A stretch of DNA of 64,000 nt from Alphaproteobacteria bacterium (lineage in GTDB: Bacteria; Pseudomonadota; Alphaproteobacteria; JAWKYA01). The notes under the pieces were generated by a model. It did no database searches and was not told the DNA's origin. It saw only the letters and a list, made by a program, of their open reading frames with translations. Both the position numbers and the translations under genes were made by a program. Where the stretch lies: contig JAWKYA010000002.1 in assembly GCA_041396725.1 (NCBI GenBank), positions 52,650-116,649 of the forward strand, read 5' to 3'. This document shows, in pieces, positions 1 to 64,000 of this stretch (its first letter is position 1; the number at the start of each line of letters is the position of its first letter).

Positions 1-1
1 G

Positions 2-739
2 GCAAGATCGGCTCGTCAGCATGGATTTAAGGTTGTTCTTTCTGGTGAGGGAGGTGATGAAATTTTCGCCGGCTATGGCCGTTATCGTAGCGCCTTACGG
101 TCATGGCCTTTCAAGAAATCTATGCGCAGTCGTGGCGTTTTCGATGGCCTTGGTCTTTTACATCCTCACTACGAGCAGGATAGAAATTGGCAGCGAGAAT
201 TTCGGGATAGTGAAGCTAAATTTTCTAAACGAGACCTTACCTCTCTCCAGAAACTACAAGCCACCGATTGTATGGATTGGCTTCCTCATGATCTTCTCAT
301 TAAACTTGATCGATGCTTGATGGCTCATGGTGTAGAGGGGCGAACGCCGTTTCTTGACCGAGAGATTGCTAGTTTCGCCTTCAATCTTCCTGATAAACTC
401 AAAATAAATCAGGGAATGGGGAAGTGGCTTCTTCGTCATTGGCTAGAGCAACATCTTCCCATAGCTCAACCTTTTTCACGAAAACGCGGTTTCACTGTCC
501 CCGTAGGTGCCTGGATGCTAGAGCAGGGAAAGAAACTCGGTGATGCTATGGCACGCCAAGTCGCGATCGCAGAGATTGCGCGGGTTGATGCTGTTCGTAG
601 GCTTTATACTGAACCGCGCTTAGCAACGGATTCTCGCCTAGCCCATGCCGCATGGGGATTATTATTCTATGCCCTTTGGCATCGACGCCATATTCAAGGC
701 CTTACCCCAGAAGGCGGCATTCTCGACTGCCTATCTTAG
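2..739 (+). CDS. asnB: asparagine synthetase (glutamine-hydrolysing), C-terminal part; 5' end lies outside the window
   Basis: The frame is open from base 2 and translates ...VVLSGEGGDEIFAGYGRY... (the ATP-pyrophosphatase SGGxD-like motif of Asn synthase). It continues LDREIASFAFNLPDKLKI...GKWLLR, which is typical of the AsnB C-terminal domain. Confidence 0.8.
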   Translation, partial: ARSARQHGFKVVLSGEGGDEIFAGYGRYRSALRSWPFKKSMRSRGVFDGLGLLHPHYEQDRNWQREFRDSEAKFSKRDLTSLQKLQATDCMDWLPHDLLIKLDRCLMAHGVEGRTPFLDREIASFAFNLPDKLKINQGMGKWLLRHWLEQHLPIAQPFSRKRGFTVPVGAWMLEQGKKLGDAMARQVAIAEIARVDAVRRLYTEPRLATDSRLAHAAWGLLFYALWHRRHIQGLTPEGGILDCLS

Positions 740-746
740 CGTCTTT

Positions 747-1385
747 CTAAATGAAGGGCGCTTCGAGTCCTTCCTGTTGAAGGGCGTGTTGAACAGCAGG
801 CCGCGCTAATAAGTTTTCAAGATACTTCCCCAAGACAGGAAAATTGCGTGGAGGCTTCTGTGTTTTGCGTGCAAAGCGCGACACCATCAATAAGTACGGA
901 TCAATTGCCGTATAATCCTTGCCTAAGAAGAAAGGTCCGTGTTTGGCAAGCTGCTGATCGATCAAGGTAAACATGTCGTTTAGTCTTTGATCAGAGGCTG
1001 CCTTAATCGCAGAAACGCCACTAGAGTCTGCTGTATAACGCTCGCTATACCACCAGATGCTCACTTCCGGCTGAATAGTATTGGTTAGATACATAAGCCA
1101 CGTATAAAATTTTGTCCGCTCGGGCGTACCTATTTTTGGAATTAATCCTTTATCGGGATATTTATCGCATAAATGCAAGCAAATTGCCGCCGACTCAAAA
1201 ACGATCAAGCCATCATCGATCATGGCTGGAATCCGGCCCGTAGGGTTAAGGTTTAGATAAGCCTCACTCTTATGTTCGTTTTTATCGCGATCCACCAGCT
1301 GCAATTGATACGGCACACCCATCTCTTCTAAGAGAATATGCGGCGCTAGATTAGCATTTCCCGGGTAATAAAAAAGCTTGATCAT
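747..1385 (-). CDS. glutathione S-transferase family protein
   Basis: 212-aa ORF with an N-terminal thioredoxin-like GST fold (YYxPGxANLAPHILLEE, NPTGRIPAMIDD) and a C-terminal helical domain. Confidence 0.8.
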   Translation of the reverse strand: MIKLFYYPGNANLAPHILLEEMGVPYQLQLVDRDKNEHKSEAYLNLNPTGRIPAMIDDGLIVFESAAICLHLCDKYPDKGLIPKIGTPERTKFYTWLMYLTNTIQPEVSIWWYSERYTADSSGVSAIKAASDQRLNDMFTLIDQQLAKHGPFFLGKDYTAIDPYLLMVSRFARKTQKPPRNFPVLGKYLENLLARPAVQHALQQEGLEAPFI

Positions 1386-1407
1386 CCCTCATTTCCTAAC
1401 ACTTACC

Positions 1408-4060
1408 CTATGCTGTTGATGTTGGTTTAATTCCTGCCGGAGCAACAGCAGCTTGGGCAGCAGCTAACCGCGCAATGGGAACGCGATAAGGTGAGCAAGA
1501 TACGTAATCGAGCTTCACCATCTCGCAAAAAGCAACTGAGGCAGGATCACCCCCATGTTCGCCACAGATACCTAGTTTTAATCGTGGGTTGGTTTTTCTT
1601 CCCTGGGTCGCAGCGATTTCAATCAAAACTCCGACACCCTTGCGATCAAGGGTCACAAAAGGATCGATTTCAAAAATTCCTGCCTTTTGATAGGTTGCCA
1701 GGAAACTTGTGGCATCGTCGCGGGATAAACCAAAAGTCGATTGCGTCAAATCATTTGTTCCAAAACTAAAAAACTCGGCAGCCTCAGCAATGGCATTGGC
1801 GCGTAATGCTGCGCGCGGTAGTTCAATCATCGTTCCCACAAGGTAGTCGAATTGTGCCTTTGTTTCTTTTTTAACTGTCTCAGCCACTCGATCGACAAGC
1901 TGTTTCATAATCGCGATCTCAGCCTTTGTCGCAACCAGTGGAATCATGATTTCTGGAACGACGGTCTCGCCACGTCGTTGCGTTTCTGACGGGCGAGCTT
2001 CGAATATAGCGCGCGCTTGCATTTCGCAAATCTCTGGATACAGACCGATTCCGACGGCATCCACATGACCTGCTGACGGATTTGATCAGCGCAAGCGCTG
2101 GTTCGCTACGAACTTCCATCATAGAAACCTTTAGCTCTTTTAGCGACTGTTTCACCTCTGATCTGTTTTTTTATGGGTAAGAACTCATGAAGTGTGACTC
2201 CAATAGCTTGTACTGGTCACCTGTAAGTTGCCAGAATTTCAAACAGTTTGATGAAATCTTGGCGTTGCATAGGAAAGTTTATCCGAGCTGCCACAAGCTC
2301 AGCTTCATCCTCAGCGTCAATCCAGCATGCCATCGCATTGGAACAATGTTCTTCGTCAAAAACATATGTCAGGGTGGCAAAAGGCCGATTCTTCCGCGCT
2401 GAACCTTCCGAGCCGCCTGATAATCGGTCGGGTTTCCGCATCGGCAACGAACCTTCATACGGCGCAATTCATCCGCCTAACCATTAGTGTTTTAAAATGC
2501 TCAGATAATCCAGGTTGAATGGTCGGAATAAGACCGCACACCTTCGCCTAAGCAGTCTCTACTGATATAATAATCTGCATCTTCGTCGCAGGATCACAGA
2601 GCCGACTGAGGTGTTTTTGCCGAATAATCGATACGGATCTCCTGCCCTGATACACGCAAGGCCGGCCATACCGCGTGCTACCACAGCGGTACGGCTGGTC
2701 ATGCCACCGCGCGTGGTCAAAATTCCTTTGGCAGCGGTATACCATGAATATTCCTTCAGGGCTACGGTCTCGATCCGCAGCAGTACAACAGCCGCCCTTT
2801 GTATAAGGCCTCAGCTTCATCAGCTGTAAAGACACTTTACTCGAGGCCGCACCGAGATGCCGGTAAACCCTTGGCGATGACCTCCCCGTTTCGCTTTGAT
2901 CTAGGGGTCGATGCAGCAACTGATCAAGAGCTGGATCAACCCGATAACCGCTTGCTTCATCGGATGTTTCCGCTTCCATCTCGATCGCACATCAGAAGCG
3001 CTGTTTGAGTTGTTCGTTTCCCGGGTCCGTGTTTGTAACATATAAAGCTTATCATCCTCAACCGTAAATTCGATATCCTGCATATCGCGATAATGCTTTC
3101 CAAAGTTGTGCGCACATCGCAGCCGTTTTGAAAACCGCAGGTATCACTTCTTCCACCGCTGAAGATCGGAATTATTAGCCTTCGCTTACTCCTTGCAGAG
3201 CAGAAATGCTGCGTATGTCTGAATACTGGCAACGACATATCCTCACCTACATTCACACATACTCACTGTAGAGCAATATTTTCTCAGTCGAGGGGTCACG
3301 GTGAAGCTGACGTTGGTGGCAACCTGGGCCCATATTCCCGAAGACCATAGCCTGGACACAATCCGCAGTGCCCCAACTTTCAGATATCAGACTTACGATA
3401 AATCTGCGCCTGCTGATCCATCCCATGAGTTAAATACTGCACTAATCGTTCCAGAGTTGAGCCTCTTGGGGTCCTGAGGGCGGCCGCGCCCTGGTTCCCA
3501 GCAATCAAAGATTTATAATCAGCAACAAGATTTTTAAGTCCGGGCGTTCTCGTCCAGTTCTGTGTCGAGCCGAACACCTTCGTGGTTTTATGCCGCCTCA
3601 TAATCCTCTCAAAAGACGACCATCTCCAAACAACATTGCTGGTATAATTTTGAATGAAGGACGAGAAGCTATCATAAGCAAAACTCGCAGGGCAAGTCAA
3701 CAATTGCTCATCAGTTCCAACTAAGATTAAGAACTGCATCCATCATGTTGCAGCTGGACAAAGCAAGCAACTATCCAACCGATACAAGAAGAGGGATTTT
3801 GCATCGCCAAACTTTACCCAATGCAGATTCAACTGCCTCCGGCTGTTTGTCCACTGAGAATTCAGACCGCTCGATAAGTCTTTCTGAGCGTAGTGCATGC
3901 CAAAGTAGACTTTGTCGTTACAACCCTGGAGGTACAGGAAGTCCTAACGCCGACACATCTCTGCAAGATTGGCCTCTTTAACAGTTGAGAAGATTTCGCA
4001 TTCCTTGCAATATTCTTCAGCTATATCTTTGCCGAAAGAATAAACCGATTAACACAGGTG
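1408..4060 (-). pseudogene. ppdK: pyruvate, phosphate dikinase, degraded (multiple frameshifts and stops)
   Basis: The 218-aa ORF at 1408-2064 carries only the C-terminal PEP-utilising TIM-barrel ([10 protein letters not shown]). Upstream, PPDK-like pieces fall in different minus frames: YVFDEEHCSNAMA..AEDEAELVAA at 2217-2447; a phosphohistidine-domain remnant (G.TRYGRPCV) at 2548-2979; [22 protein letters not shown] at 2901-3083; and LKNLVADYKSLIAG at 3380-3739. The 5' boundary near 4060 is approximate. Confidence 0.75.
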
Positions 4061-5420
4061 CCCACTTCAATCTTAGAAAATTCAGCCAATGGATTCATGA
4101 GTACCTTCGAATACCAAAGCAACCGCGTAACGATTGCAGGCAGCGGCGGTTCAGGATCGTTAACGGGTTACCTTGTCGAAGAAAAACATCAATTGACGCC
4201 GTAGTTCCGCCATAGCCATCCTGCTCATCTCTTTGCAAGGCAGATTGAAGCCAAGGCCGCGCGGTCAACCTTCATATAGATCCGTTTCTTCCACGAGAGA
4301 AAGAGATTCTTCGCCAGCGAAGATAATGATGATTATCCCTTTTTCTCTTCGATATGCGTAACATGGTGGCGTGCCGATAGCTGCTAAGGAGATTGGCACC
4401 ATCCTCCGATACCGCGTTATCCAAGGGCATCAATCCTCAGCGAGAAGCCGTGAATATCTTCCCACCCATCGCAAAAACAGCTGTGACCAGATCGTAGACG
4501 TGGTGCTCGTTCTTCAAGGTAACTCTTCAATCGATTCGCCAAAATTCCATTAACTGCCGAAATTGCCTCTGACCAGCGTGATTCTGCTCACGTATGCTAC
4601 CAGCGGCAAAGAATTTTCCGGTAATGGCAATTCTGCCGTTTATTTTCACGGATAAGCTGATCAAACCTTGGTGGCCGCGCGGTATGCAAAGCATATGGAT
4701 CTTGAGCTCGTCGGTACTTTCCAATCGCAAAAAGCCTACTGTGCATTCAATTTGTCGGAGAGGGATAAGATAACCGCATTAGGCGAAGGCAACGATCTGA
4801 TGGGCTTATGGCATAATGATCCGCAATGGCTTTGCAACTTACCTCTTCTGGTGAAGAGCATAGTACTGACCCAAGATTCGTGAATTTCGGTACCTTCAAT
4901 CATGCTAGATGAAGATCTTTTCGCCAATGGCCAGTTCGCATACTTATCAATGTAGAACTAGAGAATATCGCCAAGATCGGCCGCCAAAATTCCAATCTTT
5001 TTACTATCCAGGACCGCACTCTAGCTTGGCATGAAAGTCATACTGGCAAGCTTAAAAGTGTATCAAGTTTGCTTTTGATCCGTCTCATAAAAAAGCAAAC
5101 CGGGTGCATCGGAGAGCCGAGCGCGTAAAACTCGCTCATATTCCAGCAACAATCAGTTTACCGCCATCCTTGGCGTCAATATTTGCAATTAACGACAAAA
5201 GAGGTACCATTCCACCTGCAGCCATCTCTATCGGAGAGAAGTACTTTGTTGCATTGCGCATAAAAAAGCCGTTACGACTTCAGTGGTAATGTCATAAACT
5301 TTGGTATCGATAAGTCAAATCAGGGCTACCACACTTTACGAGTCCGATAACCTCTTCCATCAGACTCCTGGATCGTCGCGAAGACGCAAATCCGATGACA
5401 AAGTTTTCTTGAAGTTGCAT

Positions 5421-6086
5421 CTAAGATCGATTGCTTTTCCGAGCTAATTCAAAATGACATGAGTTTTCTGAAGCTTTTGTTCGTAATCTTGAGAATCCGT
5501 CGACAGTAAAACTTGCTGGAGACATAAATCGATGCCCCCAAGTGGTGGCGCCAAAGGTGAGACTCTTGCCACCCCCCATATCGATACTCCCTGGCACTAC
5601 CTTATTATCAAACAGAGCAATGATAGAGTGCAGTGGCCGAACCCAGGTTTGAGTTTGAGCACCAAACTTCATTGATTTTGGCCATGGAAATTCACGGATG
5701 GATTTTACAATCAGTTCCGCCAGCAAATCTGTCGTCGCTTGGCCCTTAACGGTTTTCGACGAAAATAAGAAAGTTACCCCTTTGATATCGCGTTTTTCAC
5801 ATACATCTAGAGTCGTTTCTGCTGAGCGCAGAAATCCCTCGATGGCATTCGGGGGCGCATCGATACGCGGTCCTTTCCGTTCCACCGTACGATCGGATTG
5901 AACCACTGGAAGGCCATCGATAGTCACAACCAGTCGCCGTGGCGTCACATAACTTGCTGTATGTGAAAAAGTCACCCCGGCTTCTGTTAAACCAGTGGCT
6001 AGCAAACGACACAAATCCTCAGCGGCTTTTACTTGCATTCGCGCTGGGATCTCTTCACCGAATAATTCAAGAAAAAACTGAGGCAT
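5421..6086 (-). pseudogene. glyS: glycyl-tRNA synthetase beta subunit, N-terminal ~220 aa only; the remainder downstream is degraded
   Basis: The ORF starts [18 protein letters not shown] (the canonical GlyS N-terminus) but ends after 221 aa, whereas a full GlyS is about 690 aa. No minus-strand ORF of 60 aa or more continues it between about 4100 and 5420. Confidence 0.7.
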
Positions 6087-7060
6087 TACGCGCTTCCACC
6101 CGCCAGTTCAAGGGTAGCAGGCCAATTACCGTGACCACGACTAGCCAAATAGGCTTCACAGCAGGCTTTGGCTAAGGTACGAACTCGGCCGATATAAGCT
6201 TGACGCTCGGTAACGCTAATGGCGCCACGTGCATCCAAGAGATTAAAGAGATGGGATGCCTTAATACATTGATCATAGGCCGGCAGAGCGACCTTTGCCT
6301 CTAGGAACTCTTTGCAGTTTAACTCTGCTTCTTCAAACTGACGTAAGAGCCGACTGGTATTCGTTAGTTCAAAATTATGTCGTGAGAATTCAACCTCAGC
6401 TTGATGATAAATGTCGCCATAAGTTTTTTTATCCTGCGTATTATCGTCTGGCTCGAAATTCCAGCGAAGATCGTATACGTTTTCGATGCCCTGAACATAC
6501 ATAGCGAGGCGTTCAAGACCGTAAGTTAATTCAGTCGACGCTGGGTTGCATTCAAGACCACCGACTTGCTGAAAATAAGTGTATTGTCCTACCTCCATAC
6601 CATCGCACCAAACTTCCCACCCTAAGCCCCAGGCTCCCAAGGTAGGGCTTTCCCAATCATCTTCAACAAAGCGGATATCATGAAGAGATGTATCGATCCC
6701 AAGCTCACGCAATGAATCGAGAAATAGCTGCTGACTGTTTTCTGGCGATGGTTTCAGGATAACTTGAAACTGATAATAGTGTTGAAGGCGGTTTGGATTC
6801 TCCCCATAGCGCCCATCGCCAGGCCGCCGGGAGGGTTGTACATAAGCGGCACTCCAAGACTCGGGTCCTAAGGCACGTAGCGTTGTCGCCCAATGGAAGG
6901 TACCAGCGCCCACTTCCATGTCATAAGGCTGCAGGATAACGCAGCCCTTTGCCGCCCAATAGCTCTGCAATCTTAAGATCAAGGCCTGAAAACTGGTCTC
7001 TTGTGTCGGGTGATCCGAAGGAAGAGATCTGCGCGGCGATGGTATAATGGCGGACGTCAT
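6086..7060 (-). CDS. glyQ: glycyl-tRNA synthetase alpha subunit
   Basis: 324-aa ORF with strong GlyQ similarity ([37 protein letters not shown]...[12 protein letters not shown]...[22 protein letters not shown]). Its start overlaps the glyS start region. Confidence 0.9.
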
Positions 7061-7135
7061 GGCTCTAATTCTACCTATCGGTTGTGCGCCGCACCATACC
7101 TGTGGTGGCCTATCAATTCAACGCCGTCCGTATCT

Positions 7136-7360
7136 TTAATAAGGACACCCCTTTTGCCCACAATTTTTCAATTTCGTAGCAACGACATAGACCTTACAAA
7201 CCGGACATTCGATGGTCTCCTGGGATGATCCGCGGCCGAATTTCGGTGGCGGCTGCCGATTTTGTGAGCGCGGTTTCCCGCCCCATAAACGGTAGCTATA
7301 CCAGATAATTCCTACCAGTAAGGCTAGTAGTATCAATTTTGATAAAGATAATCCAAACAT
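7136..7360 (-). CDS. hypothetical small membrane protein with a C-terminal CxxC...C zinc-ribbon-like motif
   Basis: 74-aa ORF with an N-terminal hydrophobic helix (LILLALLVGIIWYSY) and C-terminal CPVCKVYV...NCGQKGCPY. No family is recognised confidently. Confidence 0.4.
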   Translation of the reverse strand: MFGLSLSKLILLALLVGIIWYSYRLWGGKPRSQNRQPPPKFGRGSSQETIECPVCKVYVVATKLKNCGQKGCPY

Positions 7361-7387
7361 AAGACAGACTCTGCGCAGGATAATAGC

Positions 7388-8167
7388 TTAAAGCAAGAGA
7401 GCAGTGCCGCCACGTAATACGGCCTCTGCTTCTGGTGTATATTCACCACCAGCTTGATGCAAGGTGAGGCCTGCCGCTAATCGTAAAGGGGCCTTTTTCC
7501 CTACGATCACCTGAACCAAGATACGCTTAGCATCTCTACATATACCATCGCGCCTACGGCCTGGCCATAAGGGATAGATCACAATACTTCCCATTTCTTT
7601 CTGAGTTAAAATGGATAAAATGTCCCCTAAGCGATCCGCGCGATGGATAAGAGTGAGACTCCCCTTAGGTTTCAGATATGTCATCGCTGTTTTCACAAAG
7701 ATTGCTAGATCCGCTGTGCTTTCTTGGTGAGCTAGCTGTTTTTGTGCGTGATGCGGGGCTGAAAATTTTTCTCCCACAAGATAAGGTGGATTTGCCATAA
7801 CGTGATCAAATCCATCGCTCAAGGAGCGAGTTGCGGAGGAAGGCGGTGCGGCGATATCCCCCACGAAGATATGCAAACGTTGATGGACATTGTTACGAAG
7901 TGCGTTCTGCTGAGCTAAATCCGCAATAAGTGGATCAATCTCAATACCGACTACCTCAATCTTGGGTACTCTCGCGAGAAGACATAAGGCCGCCGCTCCG
8001 GTTCCGACCCCTAAATCAAGAATTCTATCGCCCGAGTGCGCTGCAACTGCGGCTGCTAAAAATACAGGATCTACTGCGACACGATAACCCTGATGCGGCT
8101 GCTCAAGTGCGACTCTACCGTTCAAAAGATGATCCACTGTTGTCTTAACGCTATTCGGTTGGCTCAT
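7388..8167 (-). CDS. SAM-dependent methyltransferase, tRNA1(Val) m6A37 methyltransferase (TrmN6/YfiC)-like
   Basis: Contains a DLGVGTGAAAL SAM-binding motif and the NPPY motif (VMANPPYLVGE) that characterises N6-adenine/N5-glutamine methyltransferases. Confidence 0.7.
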   Translation of the reverse strand: MSQPNSVKTTVDHLLNGRVALEQPHQGYRVAVDPVFLAAAVAAHSGDRILDLGVGTGAAALCLLARVPKIEVVGIEIDPLIADLAQQNALRNNVHQRLHIFVGDIAAPPSSATRSLSDGFDHVMANPPYLVGEKFSAPHHAQKQLAHQESTADLAIFVKTAMTYLKPKGSLTLIHRADRLGDILSILTQKEMGSIVIYPLWPGRRRDGICRDAKRILVQVIVGKKAPLRLAAGLTLHQAGGEYTPEAEAVLRGGTALLL

Positions 8168-8293
8168 TACGCAATACCGTCATCCAATAAGGTAGTCCGC
8201 GACTTTCCGCCTCTTGACCTACTCCATAGCTATTCTATGCTTTCGTTCCGATCATGGGTCAAGTCATGACCTAAATCCTTCTGCAAGGAGACG

Positions 8294-9322
8294 ATGATGG
8301 CTTTGGTGGTCAGTCTCGAGAGCCAGCGCAATCTCGCTTCATCGCTTACAGCGATGGATCAATTGACGACTCTTGTTGGACAGGATCTTGACAAAGTTAA
8401 CAGTCTCATTGTCGAGAAGATGACAAGTCGTGTCCCGCTTATCCCGCAAGTAGCAGGGTATATAATTGCTGCGGGTGGTAAACGGCTCAGGCCGATGTTA
8501 ACCTTAGCTGCAGCGCGCCTTTGTGGTTATACTGGAGACCGGGCTTATGGTCTTGCTGGTGCCATAGAATTTCTGCATACCGCAACATTACTTCACGATG
8601 ATGTCGTGGATGAGAGCGCTTTGCGCCGCGGCCAAGATAGTGCCAATGCTGTGTGGGGAAACAAGCCATCTGTCCTAGTTGGTGATTTCCTGTTTAGTCG
8701 CGCCTTCCAAATTATGGTTGCGGATGGTGACCGTGCGGTTCTTAAAATCCTCTCAGATGCCTCCGCCATTATAGCTGAAGGAGAGGTTTTACAACTCTTG
8801 ACCGCTAACGATACAGAAACCTCCGAAAGCGACTATCTGGAGGTTATTCAAGCAAAGACTGCCGCTCTGTTTGCTGCAGCGTGCGAACTTGGTGCTGTAG
8901 TTGGCGATGTAAAACGCGTCGCACGCGAAGCTTTACGTAGCTATGGATTTAATCTTGGAATTGTATTTCAACTTATCGACGATGTTTTGGATTATGCACC
9001 AGCGCAAACTGACCTTGGCAAAACCCAAGGTGACGATTTTCGCGACGGCAAAATGACTTTGCCGGTTATCCTTGCTTTTCGTCGAGGCACCCAAGAAGAA
9101 CGAGATTTCTGGCGCCGCACAATGCAAACGCAAAGCCACGAAAATGCGGACTTCGATCATGCGTTAACCCTACTTAAAAAGCACGATGCTTTACGCGATA
9201 CTATTAAACGCGCCCGTCACTATGGCGCTATTGCTCGGGATGCACTGGGTATATTCCCGGATAGCGAGATTAAGTCTGCTCTTACGGGCATCGTCGACTT
9301 TTGCATCGGGCGCGCGACTTAG
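8294..9322 (+). CDS. ispB: octaprenyl-diphosphate synthase (polyprenyl synthetase)
   Basis: Both DDxxD motifs are present (LLHDDVVDES and FQLIDDVLDY). It aligns along its full length with alphaproteobacterial IspB. Confidence 0.9.
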   Translation: MMALVVSLESQRNLASSLTAMDQLTTLVGQDLDKVNSLIVEKMTSRVPLIPQVAGYIIAAGGKRLRPMLTLAAARLCGYTGDRAYGLAGAIEFLHTATLLHDDVVDESALRRGQDSANAVWGNKPSVLVGDFLFSRAFQIMVADGDRAVLKILSDASAIIAEGEVLQLLTANDTETSESDYLEVIQAKTAALFAAACELGAVVGDVKRVAREALRSYGFNLGIVFQLIDDVLDYAPAQTDLGKTQGDDFRDGKMTLPVILAFRRGTQEERDFWRRTMQTQSHENADFDHALTLLKKHDALRDTIKRARHYGAIARDALGIFPDSEIKSALTGIVDFCIGRAT

Positions 9323-9448
9323 CAGCTACTTTTCTTTTTGTTCCTTTTTCGCTTTTTCTTTAATTTACAATCTCTTTAGCATTAGGGGTTGCTTCGCAAC
9401 AAGATCGCGCTACCCTTGTTCAAACCTAAGGCTTTCGGGGTCTGGGCA

Positions 9449-10267
9449 ATGAAATATATTTCCTATCTTATCGCCGTAATACTGTTCTTTGGGGTTGCTG
9501 AAGCTAAGGCTGAGAGTGTTGATCTTGAGCTTGTCCTAGCAGTGGACGTATCGCGGAGTGTGGATGCTACCGAAGCTAAACTTCAAAGAGATGGATACAT
9601 TGCCGCACTTCGTGATCCGCGTGTTCATGCTGCAATTAAATCTGGGTTCAACAGAAAGATCGCCGTTCTTTACTTAGAATGGGCAGGATACGGAAATACG
9701 CACATCGCCGTCAATTGGTCATCTATCGCCAACCTTGATGACGCCAATAAATTTATCGCGCAGCTCATAAAGGCAGAACCCGTCTCCGCGTCGCGTACGT
9801 CCATTAGCGGTGCTATAGAGTCGGCGATCCCTCTTTTTGATAATAATGGTTATGAAGGCGAGCGCCGAGTCATTGATATATCCGGTGATGGTCCAAACAA
9901 TACAGGGCCTTTAGTTACAGTCGCTCGCGATGCCGCGCTCAAGAGAGGAATCACCATCAACGGGCTCCCTATTCTGGATGACAAGCCTTCTTTTGGCTAT
10001 CCTGCTATCGTTAATCTCGATCTTTATTATGAGAACTGCGTTATTGGTGGAAATGGTGCCTTTGTCGTTGTGGCAGAGAACTTCACCGCCTTTGGTGAGG
10101 CGATTTTGCGGAAGCTTATTCTGGAAATCGCGGCCCGACCTATGCAAGGCCATCCGAGTTCCCATGTTCTTTACGGCCAGAGATTGCCTCGCATGCTTAT
10201 TGCCGATAAACGAACTCCGCCTCCTTGCGATATTGGCGAACTGCAATGGCGACGGATGGTCCAATAG
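9449..10267 (+). CDS. DUF1194 (vWA-like) domain protein, secreted
   Basis: Signal peptide MKYISYLIAVILFFGVAEA, then DLELVLAVDVSRSVD...IDISGDGPNN, characteristic of the DUF1194 family common in Rhizobiales. The internal ATG was chosen over the longer ORF starting at 9389. Confidence 0.65.
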   Translation: MKYISYLIAVILFFGVAEAKAESVDLELVLAVDVSRSVDATEAKLQRDGYIAALRDPRVHAAIKSGFNRKIAVLYLEWAGYGNTHIAVNWSSIANLDDANKFIAQLIKAEPVSASRTSISGAIESAIPLFDNNGYEGERRVIDISGDGPNNTGPLVTVARDAALKRGITINGLPILDDKPSFGYPAIVNLDLYYENCVIGGNGAFVVVAENFTAFGEAILRKLILEIAARPMQGHPSSHVLYGQRLPRMLIADKRTPPPCDIGELQWRRMVQ

Positions 10268-10358
10268 ATTTCGCAAGAAATACCCGAAGACGCTGTCGCG
10301 GGCCTTGCAGGAGATACACCACAGCGCTATAAGCCAGGGGGTAAAGTCCCAATAGGGA

Positions 10359-10435
10359 CGGAGTATAGCTCAGCCTGGTAGAGCACCGTGTTCGGGACGC
10401 GGGGGCCGGTGGTTCGAATCCACTTACTCCGACCA
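10359..10435 (+). tRNA. tRNA-Pro (anticodon CGG)
   Basis: Cloverleaf folded by hand: acceptor CGGAGTA/TACTCCG, U8, D-stem GCTC/GAGC, anticodon stem CCGTG/CGCGG with loop TTCGGGA (anticodon CGG, G37), variable loop 5 nt, T-stem GGTGG/CCACT with loop TTCGAAT, discriminator A, encoded CCA. Confidence 0.85.
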
Positions 10436-10477
10436 TTTCGCCGCTGAAAATCAGAAGATCAAATGAACCGCTATAAT

Positions 10478-11263
10478 CTATGAGTTCCGGCGTATGGGCT
10501 CATGCCAACGATGCAAAACTAACCATGTGAGTCCCGAAAATCCTGCGTAGATCGCAATACCTGTCGCTGCCAATAGAAATAAAGCCGCGAACATACGTGG
10601 TATTTCTAATCGATAACCCGCCTCGATAAGACGCCAAGCAAGGCCAGACCCTACGCCAGCAGATCCTGCGACAAACTCTGCCGCAACGGCACCAATCAAA
10701 GCAAGGCCACCTGCGATTCGTAATCCTGTCATAATATGAGGCAAGGCTGTAGGAAACTGAAGCCACCACAATACTTGCCATCGCGATGCCTTATAAAGGC
10801 GAAACAAATCCATATGACTAGGATCGACACTTACTAAGCCTTGTGCCGTATTCGCAAGAATTGGGAAAAAAGCGATAATAGCGGCACAAATGATTAACGC
10901 CCATTCCGTGTTTGGCAGATAAATCAATAATAATGGTGCAATGGCAATAATGGGCGTTACCTGCAAAACAACTGCCAGAGGTAGCAAGGCACGTTCAATC
11001 CAAATCGACTGAACGAATAAAATCGCTAAGGATATAGCGCCAAGAGTTGCAATGCTTAAGGCGATAAAACAAATCCGCAAAGTCACAAGAAGTGCGTGAT
11101 AGAGAGAGCCACCATCTTGGATAAGGCTCGCAAAAATATCGCTTGGAGCAGGTAAAACATAGGGCGGGATCTTAGTGCTACGCACCAACCCCTCCCACGC
11201 TAACAGAGCTACTATTACCATTAATGTTGAGGGGAGAATCTTCTGCGATACCAAAAATTTCAT
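10478..11263 (-). CDS. ABC transporter permease (NitT/TauT-type, binding-protein-dependent)
   Basis: 261-aa polytopic membrane protein with a permease EAA-like region. It is co-oriented with the ATPase and substrate-binding genes, and stop/start codons overlap. Confidence 0.85.
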   Translation of the reverse strand: MKFLVSQKILPSTLMVIVALLAWEGLVRSTKIPPYVLPAPSDIFASLIQDGGSLYHALLVTLRICFIALSIATLGAISLAILFVQSIWIERALLPLAVVLQVTPIIAIAPLLLIYLPNTEWALIICAAIIAFFPILANTAQGLVSVDPSHMDLFRLYKASRWQVLWWLQFPTALPHIMTGLRIAGGLALIGAVAAEFVAGSAGVGSGLAWRLIEAGYRLEIPRMFAALFLLAATGIAIYAGFSGLTWLVLHRWHEPIRRNS

Positions 11264-49480: not shown

Positions 49481-49568
49481 TAGAGAGCAACGACAAGACC
49501 GCGCTTTACTGGAAACTTACATAATCCTCGTCAAGATCTATGGGTTAACTTAGAATTGAGTTTATTTT

Positions 49569-52542: not shown

Positions 52543-53406
52543 ATGAGTGAAATTCTTTCTTCGCCTACCCCTCCCACAACCGCAACCCGTCAGGGCACTA
52601 CAGGACGCGTTCTTGTGGTTGGCAATGAGAAAGGGGGGTCTGGAAAATCAACCGCGGCGATTCATCTTGCTGTTGGTTTTTTGCAAAAAGGGATCCCCGT
52701 TGCGACGGTTGATATTGATTACCCCCAAGGCACCTTCACTCGGTATATGGAGAACCGCATTGCCCATATTGAGCGAACGGGTAAAAATCTGATCGTTCCC
52801 GAACATCATGTCATACCTCCGTCGACCCATACGACTGCTACAGATATGGAGCAGGATGAACGGCAACGCTATACCGCCGTCATTGATGAGCTCAAGCAAA
52901 GGTTTCCCTTAATCATTGTCGATACGCCTGGCAGTGTAACCTTTATGTCTCGCCTCGCTCATGGGCGAGCAGATGTTATTTTAACCCCGCTGAATGACAG
53001 TTTCATCGATCTTGATGTCGTCGCTCAGGTCGATTTGGTGAATTTTTCATCCCTTACCCCAAGCCACTATGCGAATATGGTCATGCAGGCGCGGGCACGG
53101 AATATGCGGCAAGGTAAAAAACCGGTCGAATGGATTGTCATGCGCAATCGCCTCTCGCCGATCGCCTCTCATAATAAGGTCCAAATGGCTAAGATACTGG
53201 AACTCCTTGGCCGTCGATTCGGATTCCGTAGCATTGCAGGGTTTTCCGAGCGCGTGGCTTTCCGTGAGCTTTTTCTGCAAGGGTTAACCCTTTTGGATGC
53301 AACCGGATCCAAAAAATCTTCATCCTACCTTGCGGCCAAGACTGAGGTGGATAATCTTCTTGCCATCTTTGAGTCTGTGCCAGCTACGACCCATTCCTCC
53401 GCCTAA
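52543..53406 (+). CDS. mipZ: division-plane positioning ATPase MipZ (ParA/MinD superfamily)
   Basis: VLVVGNEKGGSGKST deviant Walker A, IIVDTPGS, and LAHGRADVILTPLNDSFIDLD. It is collinear with Caulobacter MipZ over the whole length. Confidence 0.85.
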   Translation: MSEILSSPTPPTTATRQGTTGRVLVVGNEKGGSGKSTAAIHLAVGFLQKGIPVATVDIDYPQGTFTRYMENRIAHIERTGKNLIVPEHHVIPPSTHTTATDMEQDERQRYTAVIDELKQRFPLIIVDTPGSVTFMSRLAHGRADVILTPLNDSFIDLDVVAQVDLVNFSSLTPSHYANMVMQARARNMRQGKKPVEWIVMRNRLSPIASHNKVQMAKILELLGRRFGFRSIAGFSERVAFRELFLQGLTLLDATGSKKSSSYLAAKTEVDNLLAIFESVPATTHSSA

Positions 53407-57924: not shown

Positions 57925-59219
57925 ATGCGGAAACGGTCCTCGGTGCTTTCCTCAAAAAATTTAAGTGAAGAAACTCTTATTGAGATCGAGGACTTAGGGA
58001 GGCGTGGGGATGGGGTTGTCAGAATCAATGGGCAAGCTCTTCACGTTCCTCTCACCCTACCGGGCGACCAGTTAAAGCTTCGCTATGATCTTAAGACACT
58101 GCGCCCTGCGGAATTCTCCCTTATAAAACCGAGCGCCCTGCGCGTTCATGCCCCTTGCCCCCATTTCTCCGCTTGTGGCGGCTGCCAGTTGCAACATTTC
58201 GCCGAGCTACCGTACCGTCAATGGAAGCGCCGATTGGTTATCGACGCTGTGATGCGTGCTGGCGGTAATCCCTCGGTCGTTACCGATATCGTTAGCGTAC
58301 CCACAACCAGCCGGCGCCGCGCAGTTCTTACAGCGAAAAAATATGGTGAGCACCTTCGTGTTGGATTTTATCGCCGCCACGAACATGTCATCGAGGATAT
58401 GACTCAATGCTTAATCCTCGCACCGCCATTGGCAAATCTTCTGCCCGCACTTCGTGCCAGTCTCTCTTCCGAGATCGACCTGCCAGAAATGCGGATTACG
58501 GCAACAGCTACAGAAAGAGGGGTCGATCTGATCATCGATGCTGAGCGACCTCTAGATTTAAGGTTACGTGAGAAATTTGCTCAGTTCGCGCACGATGAAG
58601 ATCTAGCCCGGATTTCGTGGCAGCAGAATCTCAGATGCCCGAGCCCATCTCCATACGCCGTACCCCAATTGTGATTTTTGGCAGAATCCCCGTCGCCTTA
58701 CCACCCGGTATCTTTTTACAGCCCAGTATTGAAGGTGGCGCCCTCCTTCAGGCTTTCGTGAACGAAGCTATCCCGGTTCATGCCTCACGTGTTGCCGATC
58801 TTTATGCCGGCTGCGGGCCTTTTACCTTTACGCTTGCAGGACGAACTATCGTCCATGCGGTTGAAGAAAACACCGAAGCAATCGGAGCCTTAAGCGCTGC
58901 ATCGCGGCGCGCTGGGCTTGTCCCTTGGGTAACCGCCGAACAGCGCGATCTTGCACGCCGCCCCCTCCTCCCCGATGAGTTGGCGGGATTCGATGCAGTC
59001 ATTTTTGATCCACCGCGCAGCGGCGCTTCGGCACAAGCGGCCACCTTGGCCGCATCGCCCGTCCCGCTTGTAATCGCCATCTCCTGTAATCCAGCAACCT
59101 TTGCTCGTGATGCACGAACTCTGATGGCTGGGGGCTACATCTTGAAAAAAGTTATGCCACTGGATCAATTCCCATGGTCCGCCCATGTGGAGTTAGCCGC
59201 ACAATTTATCAAGCCTTAA
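57925..59219 (+). pseudogene. 23S rRNA (uracil-C5)-methyltransferase RlmD/RumA-like, split into two frames at about 58617-58674
   Basis: ORF 57925-58674 has a TRAM domain and a CPHFSACGGCQLQH Fe-S cysteine cluster. ORF 58617-59219 (+2 frame) has the SAM methyltransferase domain (DLYAGCGPFT...FDPPRSGA...ISCNPATFARD). Together they reconstruct one ~430-aa enzyme. Confidence 0.65.
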
Positions 59220-59224
59220 GCGCT

Positions 59225-60307
59225 TTATCCGCACTGCGCCTTATGGCGCAACCAATGATCTGCAAGCACAATAGCCATCATCGCTTCGCCCACCGGAACG
59301 GCGCGGATCCCAACACACGGGTCATGCCGTCCCTTAGTTGCGATCTCGGTTTCTTGACCATGGATGTCGATGGTACGTCGAGACGAGAGAATCGAACTAG
59401 TGGGTTTGACCGCAAATCGCGCAACTACCGCTTGGCCTGTCGATATTCCGCCGAGAATACCGCCGGCTTGGTTAGAAAGGAAAACAGGCCTCCCCTTTTG
59501 TATTCGCATTTCATCGGCGTTTTCTTCTCCGGATAATTCGGCGGCCGCAAAGCCTGCACCGATTTCCACACCTTTCACGGCATTGATCGACATCATGGCC
59601 GAAGCTAGATCCGCATCCAACTTGCCATAGACGGGGGCGCCAAGCCCAGGCGGCACTCCTTCGGCAACAATTTCAATAACGGCGCCGATAGAAGATCCCG
59701 CTTTACGAATATCGTCGAGATAACCTTCCCAAACTGTCACCGTTTGCGGATCGGGGCAGAAAAAGGGATTGGTATCAACAGCGGCCCAATCCCAACGACG
59801 GCGATCGATCTTCTGCGTTCCCATCTGCACCAAAGCGCCCCGCAAGTGAAAATCCTGCCCCCAGGCAGCGGCGAGAATCTTGCGAGCGATAGCTCCCGCG
59901 GCAACCCGCAACGCGGTTTCGCGTGCCGACGATCGGCCGCCGCCGCGCCAATCCCGGATCCCGTATTTAGCCCAATAGGTATAGTCCGCATGACCAGGGC
60001 GGAATTTATCTTTAATCGCATCGTAATCTTTGGAGCGTGTATCTTCGTTATCGATCATCAGAGCAATGGGTGTCCCCGTCGTTTGCCCTTCAAATACGCC
60101 TGAAAGAATACGAGCCTTATCCCCCTCCCGACGTTGGGTCGTAAAGCGCGACTGACCGGGCCGCCGGCGATCCAACCAAATTTGCAAATCCTCTTCGCTT
60201 AGAGAGAGACGGGGTGGCACACCATCTACCACACAGCCAATGGCAGGACCGTGACTCTCTCCCCAGGTTGTTATGCGAAAAAGATGGCCGAAACTGTTAT
60301 GGGACAT
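59225..60307 (-). CDS. aroC: chorismate synthase
   Basis: [32 protein letters not shown] and the rest of the AroC signature, in 360 aa. Confidence 0.95.
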
Positions 60308-60336
60308 AAGCGCGCTCTAGCCGTTCTCTCATGACC

Positions 60337-61173
60337 TTAGCTTTTCTCAAGACCTGTCAGAAGCGTTGCAACTTCAGTGGCGGCATCCACGGCTACCATC
60401 CCCACCACATTGTATCCTGAGTCGACGTGATGAACCTCACCCGTTACACCGCGCGACAGGTCACTTAAGAGATAAAGTCCTGCGTTGCCCACTTCATCGG
60501 TCGTCACATTGCGTCGCAGAGGTGCATTCAACTCATTCCACTTGAGGATATAGCGAAAATCCCCAATCCCACTGGCCGCCAGTGTTTTAATCGGGCCTGC
60601 CGAGATCGCATTCACCCGAATGTCGCGCGTCCCTAAATCAACCGCTAAATAGCGCACCGATGCCTCCAACGCCGCTTTAGCAACACCCATAACATTATAG
60701 TGCGGCATCACCCGTTCGGCCCCATAGTAGGTCAAGGTCACCAGACTGCCGCCAGAATTCATGATTGCAGCCGCTTCCTTGGCTACGGCCGTAAAAGAGA
60801 AGCACGAGATGTCCAGGGTGGTGCGAAAATTCTCGCGCGTTGTATCGAGGTAAAGCCCCTTAAGTTCTTCCTTGTCGGAAAAGGCGATAGCATGTACCAC
60901 AAAGTCAATTTTCGGCCACGTTTTGGTAACTTGAGTAAAGCACGCGCGGATACTGTCGTCGGTAGCAACATCGCACTCAAGAACCAAGGATGAATTTATA
61001 CTCTCGGCCAAGGGTTTGACCCGTTTATACAGCGCCTCCCCTTGATAGGTGAAAGCAACCTCGGCGCCCTGCGCAGCGATCGCCCGCGCAATCCCCCAGG
61101 CAATGGAACGATCGTTCGCAACCCCCATGATAATGCCGCGTTTGCCGGCCATAAGCGGGGTAGAAAGGGTCAT
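60337..61173 (-). CDS. fabI: enoyl-[acyl-carrier-protein] reductase (NADH)
   Basis: Contains GKRGIIMGVANDRSIAWGIA and a Y-x6-K catalytic pattern (YNVMGVAKAALEA). The start may be the internal Met at 61152. Confidence 0.9.
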   Translation of the reverse strand: MTLSTPLMAGKRGIIMGVANDRSIAWGIARAIAAQGAEVAFTYQGEALYKRVKPLAESINSSLVLECDVATDDSIRACFTQVTKTWPKIDFVVHAIAFSDKEELKGLYLDTTRENFRTTLDISCFSFTAVAKEAAAIMNSGGSLVTLTYYGAERVMPHYNVMGVAKAALEASVRYLAVDLGTRDIRVNAISAGPIKTLAASGIGDFRYILKWNELNAPLRRNVTTDEVGNAGLYLLSDLSRGVTGEVHHVDSGYNVVGMVAVDAATEVATLLTGLEKS

Positions 61174-61320
61174 TGTTTGCCTCTTGAGATAGCGTCGACA
61201 GGGGTAGGCATCCTACACAAAGATCATTCTGCTTCCAAGCGACTGCTGCAACTTGCTCTTGGCAGGGTGGTAGGTAACATTCATAGTACGGTTTCCTTGG
61301 ATTAAAGCTGGACTTTCTCT

Positions 61321-61914
61321 ATGATTATTGCTGCTGTTCCAGATCCCTTCAGCCTTTTCGCCACCTGGCTGACCGAAGCAGAAACGCGAGAAGCAAACGA
61401 TCACAACGCCATGGCCTTGGCCACCGCCAGCCCTGGCGCCGTGCCATCGGTCCGTATGGTCCTACTCAAGGGCTTCGATCCTCGAGGTTTCGTCTTTTAT
61501 ACGAATTATCGAAGCCGTAAGGGCCAAGAGCTGAGTCAAAATCCCCAAGCCGCGCTTTGTTTCCATTGGAAGTCGCTGCGGCGGCAAATTCGCATCGAGG
61601 GCACGGTTGCCCAGGTCAGCCCCGAAGAGGCCGATACCTATTTCATCTCGCGCCCCTATGGATCGCAGATTGGCGCCTGGGCATCTCAGCAATCGCAACC
61701 GCTGAGCGATCGCCGTGAACTTGAGGCTCGAGTCACCCAGCTTGAACAACAGTACCCTGCCACGGTCCCACGACCCGATTATTGGTCAGGATTTCGCCTG
61801 ACGCCGCGGGCGATCGAGTTTTGGCAAAACATGCCCTCTCGGCTTCATGATCGTCTCCTTTATACGCGGATGGATGAAAGTAGCTCATGGACCATACAAC
61901 GACTTCAACCGTAA
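61321..61914 (+). CDS. pdxH: pyridoxamine 5'-phosphate oxidase
   Basis: Contains [30 protein letters not shown]...RQIRIEG, the PdxH family signature. Confidence 0.9.
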
Positions 61915-62882
61915 AAACCGATGCTGCCGCCCTGCGGTGGGTTCGCTGGGCGAGTTACGCCTCCGTGGGGGTTGCCGTCGTTCTTATCCTAGCTAAGCTT
62001 ACAGCTTTTCTCGCCACCGACTCTGTGAGTGTTTTATCGACCCTCATCGACTCTCTCCTGGATGCTTTTGCTTCCGTCATTATTCTCTTGGCTGTGCGTA
62101 CAGCTTCGATGCCCCCCGATGCCGAGCACCGGTTCGGCCACGGCAAGGCCGAACCCCTAGGCGCCCTTGCCCAGGCTTTGTTCGTCAGCGGCTCGGCGGT
62201 CCTTTTGTTCATCGAAGCGGGGCATCGTTTGCTAACGAGCCCACAAACCGTCACTCAGGTACCGCTAGGGATTGCTGTTATGGTGCTGTCCTTGGTCTTA
62301 ACGGGTTGTCTCATTCTCTTTCAGCGCTTCGTTATTCGCCGCAGCGGCTCCATCGCTATTGGCGCCGACGCACTTCATTATCGCACCGATTTTCTCGTCA
62401 ACGGCGCCGTCATCCTAGCGCTATGGTTCGGACAACAGCACTCGCTTGCTTTTGTCGACCCTCTTATTGCCTTCGGCATTGGCAGTTATATTCTTTATAG
62501 TGCATGGCATATCGGCCGCGGTGCCCTGGATATGTTGATGGATCGTGAGATCCCCGATCCCGACAAAGCCAAGATCATCGATCTCGCCTTCTCTTACCCC
62601 GAGGTGGCTGCTCTTCACGATCTTCGCACACGGCGTGCCGGACCGAATGCCTTCGTGCAAATGCATATCGAGTTGGATGGCACCATGCCTTTATCCGAAG
62701 CTCATCGCATCGCCGATGGTATCGAGAAAAAGATCCGCACCGCCTTTCCCGGTATCGACGTTCTTGTGCACCAAGATACCCTATTCCCTCTTGGTCGTAG
62801 CCGCCGCGTTGATCGAATTAATCGCCCAGAAACATCCGAGACTTCGCAAGCCGTTGGCGCATCCCATGCTTCCTCCTGGTAG
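61887..62882 (+). CDS. cation diffusion facilitator family transporter
   Basis: Six TM helices, with the HxxxD motif ([10 protein letters not shown]) and a C-terminal cytoplasmic domain (DREIPDPD...). It overlaps the pdxH 3' end by about 28 nt. Confidence 0.85.
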
Positions 62883-64000
62883 AACCTCCGATAAAAGTGA
62901 AACCTCTGATAAAGCCTTCGATAAAACCTATACCGAGGTAGTCGAGACATTTCGCTGGGCAATCCCGCAACAATTCAACATCGCTCAAGTCTGCTGCGAG
63001 CGGTGGGCCGACGGTCGGGGACGTCCAGCGATTATCCATGCAGCGGCTTCAGGAGCAGTCACCACCCTTACCTTCGATGCCTTAAATGCCGCCACGAACC
63101 GCCTGGCTAATCTTTTCTTGGCCCAGGGAATTCAGCGCGGCGATCGCATCGCCATTTTATTATCGCAGCGCCCCGAGACAGCCATCGCCCATCTCGCGTG
63201 TCAGAAAATTGGCGCCATCGCCGTGCCTCTGTTCGTGTTGTTTCAAACCGATGCTCTGCGGTTTCGCCTGGGAGATAGCGGCGCCCGAGCCATTGTCACC
63301 GATGCCGAGAATTGGCCCAAAATCGAAGTCCTCCGAATCGATCTTCCCCTGCTGAAAATAGCCGTTGTGATCAATCTTGATCATATCGGCACTGATACGG
63401 TAACCAACGGAGCATTGATCGATTGGGATCGAGGATTGGCCAAGGCGAGTGATCGCTTTACTGCTATCGCCACTCATATCGATGAGCCAGCCTTGATCAT
63501 TTACACCTCGGGGACCACGGGATCTCCTAAGGGTGCGCTTCATGCTCAGCGTGTTCTCTTGGGGCATTTGCCGGGAGTTGAATTTCCCCACGAATTCTTC
63601 CCACAACCAAACGACCTGTTTTGGACGCCCGCCGATTGGGCATGGATCGGCGGCTTGCTCGATGTTTTGTTGCCATCCCTGTACCATGGTGTCCCTGTCC
63701 TGGCGCAGCGGATGGCGAAGTTCGATCCGGAAGCGGCCTTTCGATTGATGGCCCAACACAAGGTTCGCAACAGCTTCCTGCCGCCCACTGCGCTGAAGCT
63801 GATGCGGGTGGTGCCTCAGCCGCAACGGTTTGGCGCTACCCTGCGGTCGATCGGCTCGGGCGGCGAAAGTCTGGGGGCCGAGATCCTGGACTGGGGTCGT
63901 GCCGCTTTCGGCCTTACGATCAATGAATTCTATGGCCAAACCGAGTGTAATCTTGTGATCGGGAACTGCGCCCGTGTGATGCCGATCCGTCCTGGCGCGA
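62866..64000 (+). CDS. AMP-dependent synthetase/ligase (acyl-CoA synthetase family), 3' end outside window
   Basis: The frame is open from the ATG at 62866 to the window end. It carries the AMP-binding motif IYTSGTTGSPKG and the downstream FYGQTE motif. Confidence 0.75.
   Translation, partial: MLPPGRTSDKSETSDKAFDKTYTEVVETFRWAIPQQFNIAQVCCERWADGRGRPAIIHAAASGAVTTLTFDALNAATNRLANLFLAQGIQRGDRIAILLSQRPETAIAHLACQKIGAIAVPLFVLFQTDALRFRLGDSGARAIVTDAENWPKIEVLRIDLPLLKIAVVINLDHIGTDTVTNGALIDWDRGLAKASDRFTAIATHIDEPALIIYTSGTTGSPKGALHAQRVLLGHLPGVEFPHEFFPQPNDLFWTPADWAWIGGLLDVLLPSLYHGVPVLAQRMAKFDPEAAFRLMAQHKVRNSFLPPTALKLMRVVPQPQRFGATLRSIGSGGESLGAEILDWGRAAFGLTINEFYGQTECNLVIGNCARVMPIRPGA

Follow-up and report, generated by a model that had tools for sequence, protein, structure and literature searches.

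The window (the whole 64-kb stretch of DNA analyzed here) belongs to a MAG deposited at NCBI under the locus tag R3E60 and labeled "Alphaproteobacteria bacterium." Approximately 114 frameshifts and 10 in-frame stops break 12 genes at 11 loci in it: ppdK, glyS, aguB, an HD-domain gene, arnT-like and arnC-like genes, a FecR-like gene, the genes for a cytochrome c' and a dihaem cytochrome, fbpA, fbpB, and rumA. Lesions were called by frameshift-aware protein-to-DNA alignment against intact orthologues of syntenic relatives, namely L162/L163 (Logan), L170 (JGI), and L082 (JGI). The broken genes and their informative neighbors are the following.

1408 to 2064, reverse strand: lesion-free 3' fragment of ppdK, a 218-aa ORF matching positions 117 to 292 of 293 of the Pfam PEP-utilizers_C profile
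2086 to 4057, reverse strand: ppdK relic with 35 frameshifts and 4 in-frame stops (lesions from 4045 to 2086)
4068 to 5500, reverse strand: glyS relic, the C-terminal ~500 codons, with 24 frameshifts and 4 stops (lesions from 5492 to 4068)
5421 to 6086, reverse strand: glyS 5' fragment, a 221-aa ORF matching positions 1 to 207 of 536 of Pfam tRNA_synt_2f
6086 to 7060, reverse strand: glyQ, intact, 84% identical to relatives, no indel
26210 to 27078, reverse strand: aguB (N-carbamoylputrescine amidase), carrying a 1-nt insertion at 26547 and another at 26528
29620 to 30221, reverse strand: HD-domain (YfbR-like) gene, frameshifted at 29771 and carrying a stop at 29722
30196 to 31665, reverse strand: arnT-like (PMT_2) relic with 10 frameshifts and 1 stop
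31706 to 31975, reverse strand: small LAB_N ORF between arnC and arnT, intact, 78% identical to the relative
31980 to 32722, reverse strand: arnC-like GT2 relic with 9 frameshifts
32986 to 33805, forward strand: FecR-domain relic with 6 frameshifts called (33184, the pair 33497/33541, 33623, 33676, and 33762)
36557 to 37930, forward strand: fused ORF of 457 aa, cytochrome c' plus dihaem cytochrome c (PGAP product MEZ5647462.1)
46755 to 47699, forward strand: fbpA (Fe3+ ABC substrate-binding protein) relic, frameshifted 14 times and free of stops
47809 to 48691, reverse strand: relic of the 3' half of fbpB with 10 frameshifts (48691 to 47871)
48691 to 49516, reverse strand: 5' half of fbpB, lesion free for 247 codons
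57925 to 59219, forward strand: rumA/rlmD-like 23S rRNA methyltransferase gene with a single 1-nt deletion near 58630

The density of disruption is far beyond chance. The broken genes make up 12 of about 69, and relic DNA occupies some 9.4 kb of the 64 kb (15%), figures that describe this window only. Free-living bacteria typically show a pseudogene fraction of 1 to 5%, and the fraction in the window is well above that level. Approximately 55 neighbors within the window are lesion free; 13 neighboring genes aligned to the same relatives showed no frameshift and no stop, and about 40 further ORFs gave full-length Pfam matches. An Rfam scan of the window returned a tRNA-Pro only. The relatives' own contigs carry 0 to 1 lesion per 8 to 26 kb, and all 12 genes are intact among syntenic relatives from other metagenomes. 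Among the relatives' copies of the HD-domain gene, a frameshift was seen in L082 only, and the L162 copy is intact. Because the relatives carry intact copies, the disruptions are lineage specific. An earlier note on this DNA had counted about 10 disrupted loci; all ten were confirmed, and the HD-domain gene, absent from its list, adds an eleventh and brings the number of genes to 12. The same note described aguB, rumA, the FecR-like gene, and the cytochrome as single-frameshift cases, which is true of rumA only. Its ORF-free stretch at 3750 to 5400 consists of the glyS relic and the 5' end of the ppdK relic.

The lesions gather in three blocks, at approximately 2086 to 5500 (block A), 29722 to 33805 (block C), and 46883 to 48691 (block E), each 1.8 to 4.1 kb long, and in three micro-clusters, in aguB (approximately 26528 to 26560), at the cytochrome junction (approximately 37013 to 37124), and in rumA (approximately 58620 to 58640). 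Rather than being scattered at random along each dead gene, the lesions end at sharp borders inside ppdK, glyS, and fbpB, where the blocks adjoin lesion-free fragments, an arrangement with P < 1e-3 for each border; if a dead gene decayed neutrally and uniformly, each pattern would have a P of about 1e-4 or less. They are confined to contiguous blocks irrespective of genes, and the flanks are clean.

In block A, all 35 frameshifts of ppdK lie upstream of 2086, and the last 217 codons are free of them; this 3' fragment is 83% identical in amino acid sequence to PpdK of L170, and residues 801 to 917 retain 100% of the near-invariant residues. The length of the ppdK relic is at most 2% off that of the intact gene. 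In glyS, the frame holds for the first ~198 codons, which share 78% identity with the relative; beyond them there is 1 lesion per ~60 nt, and the relic stays colinear with its orthologue through the final residue. Essential glyS is destroyed, yet its partner glyQ stays intact. The mismatch at codon positions 1 and 2 is 0.31 to 0.32 in the block, versus 0.10 in the intact part; fitting by simulation puts the noise in block A at 5 to 10% substitutions and 4 to 6% indel events. The block holds 8 in-frame stops. A scan for promoters and terminators around block A gave nothing above shuffled sequence.

In block E, fbpB runs for 247 clean codons and then takes 10 frameshifts within 820 nt. In the FecR relic of block C, the first three frameshifts are clear, and the last three fall in a weakly aligned tail. 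A 9-nt tandem duplication at 32538 resembles a genuine slippage event; tandem duplications were not enriched within the blocks. The aguB micro-cluster packs 2 insertions and 4 substitutions at conserved residues into about 36 nt, and the remainder of the gene is pristine. The N-terminal fragment of rumA is annotated by PGAP as a 249-aa hypothetical protein (R3E60_00610). The lesions are part of the publicly deposited record, where PGAP has derived products from them.

The cytochrome ORF is one of these products. A shift of -2 nt directly after the CxxCH motif of cytochrome c' (~37013) is compensated about 100 nt away by a second shift in the signal-peptide region of the dihaem cytochrome (~37100), and the two together bypass the TAA that divides the genes in relatives, where the two proteins are made separately and measure 158 aa and 287 aa. 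A natural c'-dihaem fusion was considered and rejected: among the matches listed, the other 119 homologues are 267 to 341 aa long and cover the dihaem half only, and both domains are spanned only by this MAG's own 457-aa product.

The lesion spectrum is dominated by small indels. Frameshifts outnumber stops by about 11 to 1 overall, and blocks C and E together contain 50 frameshifts versus 2 stops. In those two blocks, changes at codon positions 1 and 2 amount to 0.209 per site with a ts/tv of 1.26, indistinguishable from intact genes (0.200 and 1.27), and indel events reach 1.3%. When damage was simulated on an intact orthologue pair, substitution-to-indel ratios of approximately 1 to 2:1 fit the data. 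About half of the indels exceed 1 nt, deletions outnumber insertions by 2.2 to 1, and the spectra of indel size and direction are the same across all blocks. The largest of the 103 deletions is 14 nt, and relic lengths are within 2 to 4% of those of the orthologues. For comparison, natural pseudogenes of Ca. Burkholderia hold 396 deletions totaling 7,421 nt, and indels of natural pseudogenes are deletion biased, multinucleotide, and located away from homopolymers (PMC6054270). No enrichment of lesions was found at GANTC, GATC, or CCWGG motifs. Outside the patches the contig is accurate: a 3,892-nt stretch matches an independent Logan k-mer contig with 100% identity. Exact-product look-ups for an independent assembly spanning a lesion (IspB, the aguB N-fragment, the RumA N-fragment, rhomboid, AroC, PPIase, and both versions of the LAB_N ORF) found none, with only AccC on record.

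The earlier note had offered two readings, reductive evolution in a host-restricted Rhizobiales lineage and systematic homopolymer error in the assembly, and neither stands as written. What holds of the first is that the disruptions are lineage specific. No evidence points to host restriction, and the placement in Rhizobiales is unsupported: the nearest named matches are of the Kiloniellales/Rhodospirillales type, at 46 to 78% amino acid identity; the best named matches of RumA, GlyQ, and the cytochrome are from Kiloniellales, Rhodospirillales, or Azospirillum; and the best GlyQ matches in GTDB representatives, 64 to 73% identical, are spread across many alphaproteobacterial orders. Two further GlyQ matches, P0241 and P0242, seemingly 100% identical, were set aside as chimeric ENA products with internal duplications. 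Relatives of the lineage were found in several JGI, ENA, and Logan metagenomes. Other marks of reduction were likewise missing from the window: no repeat family of 22 nt or longer occurred beyond chance and no transposase domain was seen in the ORFs scanned; GC content, at about 0.49 (0.47 to 0.49) versus 0.49 to 0.53 in the relatives, has not dropped, and the blocks show no decrease beyond that of the relatives at the same loci; and no gene is missing relative to the relatives, with which gene order is identical. Finally, the lesions follow blocks of DNA and not individual genes.

There are three sharp blocks that cross gene boundaries, and the damage may therefore be patchy assembly noise and not genome decay. 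Four features were observed directly: lesions arranged in blocks, a spectrum rich in indels, flanks free of damage, and relatives with intact genes. From these we infer with about even confidence that most lesions are technical and stem from patchy, poorly polished assembly sequence. The contig would then be a mosaic of accurate sequence and poorly corrected patches, the latter deriving, for example, from long-read bridges, gap fills, or low-coverage strain-specific segments left unpolished by short reads. Within a patch, random small indels with some mismatches would break whichever gene happened to be there, and outside it the sequence would be clean.

We favor this patchy-assembly origin over real lineage-specific erosion, which we consider possible but somewhat doubtful. 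Under erosion, selection would have been lost on ppdK, glyS, and genes for polyamines, lipid A modification, iron uptake, and other accessory functions, with ppdK and glyS decaying first, arnCT, FecR, and fbpAB at an intermediate stage, and aguB, HD, rumA, and the cytochromes struck recently; the GlyS N-terminal, PpdK C-terminal, and FbpB N-terminal fragments would still be functional or would have been restored by recombination. Several observations favor this. All 12 genes are intact in syntenic relatives and at least 13 neighbors are lesion free; frameshifts and in-frame stops are both present, and block A has a clear substitution excess; the indels, deletion biased, multinucleotide, and away from homopolymers, resemble those of natural pseudogenes (PMC6054270); and the struck genes are mostly dispensable and include the operon mates arnC/arnT and fbpA/fbpB. 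The level of damage varies by locus, as expected of pseudogenes of different ages, block C ends near the limits of its own gene cluster with the LAB_N ORF inside it clean, and the duplication at 32538 looks like real slippage. Moreover, the noise in block A exceeds modern long-read error, such that an artifact would need single-read or old-chemistry coverage. Erosion does not, however, readily account for three sharp intragenic borders between dense lesions and pristine sequence, a dead glyS beside a conserved glyQ, or an 11-to-1 ratio of frameshift to nonsense when substitutions in blocks C and E are not detectably in excess. The ceiling of 14 nt on deletions with no loss of length and the clustering of the aguB lesions also count against it, as does a window free of IS elements and showing neither a shift in GC nor loss of genes; the paired cytochrome shifts add to the case for a technical origin. 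A patchy technical cause is no less likely than real decay.

If the blocks are real, the lineage might retain gene fragments that are expressed and under purifying selection as the remainder of each gene decays, a proposition we judge unlikely. GlyRS would be represented by a ~200-aa N-terminal piece of its beta subunit, next to which the alpha subunit is intact, PpdK by its C-terminal 217 aa, and FbpB by its first transmembrane half. Such a reading would call for a glycyl-tRNA synthetase that is split or trans-complemented and for mutations among which small indels are unusually frequent. Real blocks would also make the lineage an unusual instance of erosion, one reaching an essential aminoacyl-tRNA synthetase subunit.

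A mixed origin strikes us as quite unlikely. One form of it takes block A as old and real decay, or as DNA of different ancestry, and the indel-only blocks and the micro-clusters as technical; in another, the flanks of real relics would have been overwritten by recombination from intact conspecifics. The clear substitution excess and 8 stops in block A, with almost none in C and E, fit such a division, as does the 1.8- to 4.1-kb length of the blocks. Against it, indel size and direction spectra are alike in all blocks, recombination ending within a strongly decayed segment is improbable, and the glyS/glyQ paradox persists.

An assembly-wide, systematic homopolymer error of long reads is rejected as very improbable: nanopore-derived MAGs are known to carry homopolymer indels that truncate genes (PMC9262707; proovframe preprint, 10.1101/2021.08.23.457338) and frameshifts are the dominant lesion type here, but the context of 108 frameshift sites equals background, 54 runs of at least 6 nt outside the blocks are unbroken, homopolymer density is similar within and outside the blocks, ~55 kb of coding sequence has no frameshift, and indels of 2 nt or more make up about half of the total.

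Should the blocks be technical, pseudogene counts drawn from this public MAG would be too high and would point, wrongly, to a lifestyle like that of a symbiont; lesions have already become PGAP protein records, the 457-aa "cytochrome c" and the 249-aa "hypothetical protein." A homopolymer check alone does not clear an assembly, and lesion blocks that cross gene boundaries are a useful warning sign.

The cytochrome ORF resembles gene fusions that arise by stop-codon bypass in that two adjacent genes in the same frame, one TAA apart in relatives, are read as one ORF; it differs in that the fusion takes two compensating frameshifts and is unique to this record. With Sodalis glossinidius, the Ca. 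Burkholderia leaf-nodule symbionts, and Mycobacterium leprae, pseudogene-rich and recently host-restricted bacteria, the window shares a locally high proportion of broken genes (12 of ~69), relics colinear with intact orthologues, and deletion-biased indels away from homopolymers (PMC6054270). Unlike in those bacteria, the lesions here are blockwise, with no IS elements, large deletions, GC drop, or gene loss; frameshifts far outnumber nonsense changes; and essential glyS is struck while its partner glyQ is conserved. Compared with frameshift artifacts of long-read or hybrid metagenomes (PMC9262707; 10.1101/2021.08.23.457338), the indels here lie off homopolymers, are uneven, and are confined to three blocks and three micro-patches, and block A is noisier than a polished consensus would give; like those artifacts, they are small, dominate the damage, and truncate genes that are intact in relatives, and the sequence elsewhere is accurate, as it is in such assemblies where correction succeeded.

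Damaged genes were aligned with the orthologues of relatives by a purpose-written frameshift-aware protein-to-DNA aligner, which bore out the high density of disruption described in an earlier note and extended it by an HD-domain gene missing from that list. Frameshifts numbered ~114 and in-frame stops 10.

Lesions (frameshifts; in-frame stops) per damaged gene
ppdK: 35; 4
glyS: 24; 4
aguB: 2; 0
HD-domain gene: 1; 1
arnT-like gene: 10; 1
arnC-like gene: 9; 0
FecR-like gene: 6 (the last three called in a weakly aligned tail); 0
fbpA, plus strand: 14; 0
fbpB: 10; 0
rumA: 1; 0

Thirteen neighboring genes compared likewise had 0 frameshifts and 0 stops, and some 40 further ORFs in the window gave full-length Pfam matches. 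The description of aguB, rumA, the FecR-like gene, and the cytochrome locus as single-frameshift cases held for rumA only, the other three having more than one shift. In aguB, a stretch of 36 nt holds two insertions as well as four substitutions that hit family-conserved residues; the rest of the gene is pristine, and the repaired product aligned without gaps to PDB 5h8i (E 1e-120). At the cytochrome pair (36557-37930), two compensating shifts put the intergenic TAA out of frame, giving a 457-aa cytochrome c'-dihaem cytochrome fusion found in no other homologue; in relatives, the two genes share a frame, with just a single TAA and 21 nt between them. PGAP lists this frameshift-made fusion as a normal 457-aa "cytochrome c."

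The window belongs to a metagenome bin that has been deposited and annotated by PGAP, since its N-terminal RumA fragment and long cytochrome ORF are identical to NCBI proteins MEZ5647481.1 and MEZ5647462.1, respectively, which are both encoded on a 121,821-bp contig. An independent Logan k-mer contig (run SRR28338156) matched positions 15956-19847 at 100% identity. The GC content is ~0.48 and higher toward the 3' end (0.55; 0.54 to 0.56 at 58000-64000), and one tRNA was the only Rfam match in the 64 kb. The proposed Rhizobiales assignment found no support: GlyQ was only 64 to 73% identical to GTDB species representatives, spread over many alphaproteobacterial orders, and the named best matches of RumA, GlyQ, and the cytochrome were Kiloniellales, Rhodospirillales, or Azospirillum types. 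Typical alphaproteobacterial cell-cycle genes are intact at 19701-21360 and 52543-53406: those for a CtrA-type response regulator, a ChpT-like histidine phosphotransferase, DUF3553, and MipZ. The CcrM motif GANTC occurs only 153 times in 64 kb versus ~250 expected by length alone.

Reference contigs syntenic with the window came from scanning metagenomes with AguA and from querying with the cytochrome and GlyQ of the relatives. These sister-lineage contigs, L082/L083 (JGI Ga0075163 and ENA), L162-L169 (Logan, eight runs), and L170 (JGI 3300056999), cover 1-13,000 and 26,000-48,400 with gene order unchanged; conserved proteins are 80 to 92% identical and nucleotide identity is ~0.70 to 0.76. 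In them ppdK, aguB, the HD gene, arnT, LAB_N, arnC, FecR, cytochrome c', the dihaem cytochrome, and fbpA were each called as one unbroken gene; the fbpB call (563 aa) extends past the limit of the retrieved locus. The glyS of L170 has one frameshift at a G6 run (6960-7060, JGI Ga0558716_10039), leaving ORFs of 179 and 523 aa with an ATG (MGGGK...) exactly at the split; either a sequencing error or a genuinely divided GlyRS beta subunit could explain this. In L082, the HD-domain gene has a 1-nt deletion at 4570 (CGCC to CGC) absent from L162; apart from this, the two contigs share 99.9% identity over 7.7 kb. The L162-L169 lineage is, judging from its sequences, a strikingly clonal and widespread strain, with 100% identity over 5 to 9 kb across seven SRA runs (several accession series), 99.9% identity to the older JGI and ENA contigs, and L165 as a 97.5% variant. 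The top GlyQ matches, ENA proteins P0241 (418 aa) and P0242 (441 aa), have an internally duplicated GlyQ core and are probably chimeras of their metagenome assemblies. Between pssA and a hydrolase, the window carries an extra 209-aa CDP-alcohol phosphatidyltransferase gene (40518-41147), where relatives have only a 118-nt spacer, and an otherwise intact GT1 glycosyltransferase gene (~42895) is shortened by an in-frame deletion of 72 nt compared with theirs.

The lesions lie in three contiguous blocks whose edges fall inside genes.

Lesion-dense blocks
Block A, ~2086 to ~5500: all but the final quarter of ppdK, plus the 500 3'-terminal codons of glyS
Block C, 29722-33805: HD 3' end, arnT, arnC, and FecR, with clean stretches including LAB_N
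Block E, 46883-48691: fbpA in full, plus the 3' half of fbpB, which is convergent with it

Across its last 217 codons, ppdK has 0 lesions and 83% identity to a relative, with all near-invariant residues of 801-917 kept; the first ~198 codons of glyS and first 247 of fbpB are also clean. Under uniform neutral decay, each clean fragment has P of ~1e-4 or less, given one lesion per 60 to 90 nt in the adjacent DNA. Simple gene decay fits these patterns poorly. The small LAB_N membrane ORF (31706-31975) is intact, with 78% identity to a relative, although heavily damaged arnC-like and arnT-like genes flank it. An alpha2beta2 GlyRS requires glyS, yet glyQ, adjoining the glyS relic, has 0 indels and 84% identity to relatives.

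Calibration of the aligner with known indel and substitution loads added to the intact orthologue pair PutA gave a best fit for block A of ~4 to 6% indel events and 5 to 10% substitutions; blocks C and E had 1.3% indel events. At codon positions 1 and 2, blocks C and E (0.209 changes per site, ts/tv 1.26) match intact genes of similar identity (0.200, ts/tv 1.27), and they hold only 2 stops in ~2,000 aligned codons. The substitution-to-indel ratio was ~1 to 2:1; natural bacterial spectra are nearer 5 to 10:1. Deletions longer than 14 nt numbered 0 of 103, and relic lengths were within 2 to 4% of those of intact genes. Pseudogenes of Ca. Burkholderia have 396 deletions totaling 7,421 nt (PMC6054270).

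The contig may be a technical mosaic, in which bridges that were poorly corrected, or segments of low coverage, would break up otherwise accurate sequence, a reading for which we consider the balance about even. It would account for where the blocks end, for the glyS/glyQ paradox and the micro-clusters, for a spectrum rich in indels but lacking large deletions, and for the absence of other signs of erosion. Points against it are how noisy block A is, an indel spectrum that is multi-nucleotide and biased toward deletion, damage that varies in level, and a set of struck genes made up mostly of dispensable operon partners. Real gene erosion accounts for these points but needs special pleading for the three retained fragments and glyS, and we regard it as possible, on the doubtful side. 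A mixed or recombination origin seems improbable. Homopolymer indel error, which the earlier note had offered as its technical alternative, is very unlikely: the longest runs within 4 nt of 108 frameshift sites were distributed like those around randomly chosen positions of the regions concerned, 54 of 62 runs of at least 6 nt lie outside damaged regions, all unbroken, methylation motifs were not enriched near lesions, and, in nucleotide alignments, 1-nt events made up only 43 to 48% of indels, with deletions ~2.2 times as frequent as insertions. Natural pseudogene indels are likewise not tied to homopolymers (PMC6054270), and the lack of a homopolymer link is therefore nondiscriminating.

If the lesions are technical, they would belong to a recognized class of assembly problem, here taking an unusual, patchy form that would escape a homopolymer check. 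If real, they would mark one more lineage rich in pseudogenes, of a kind already known but with odd features.
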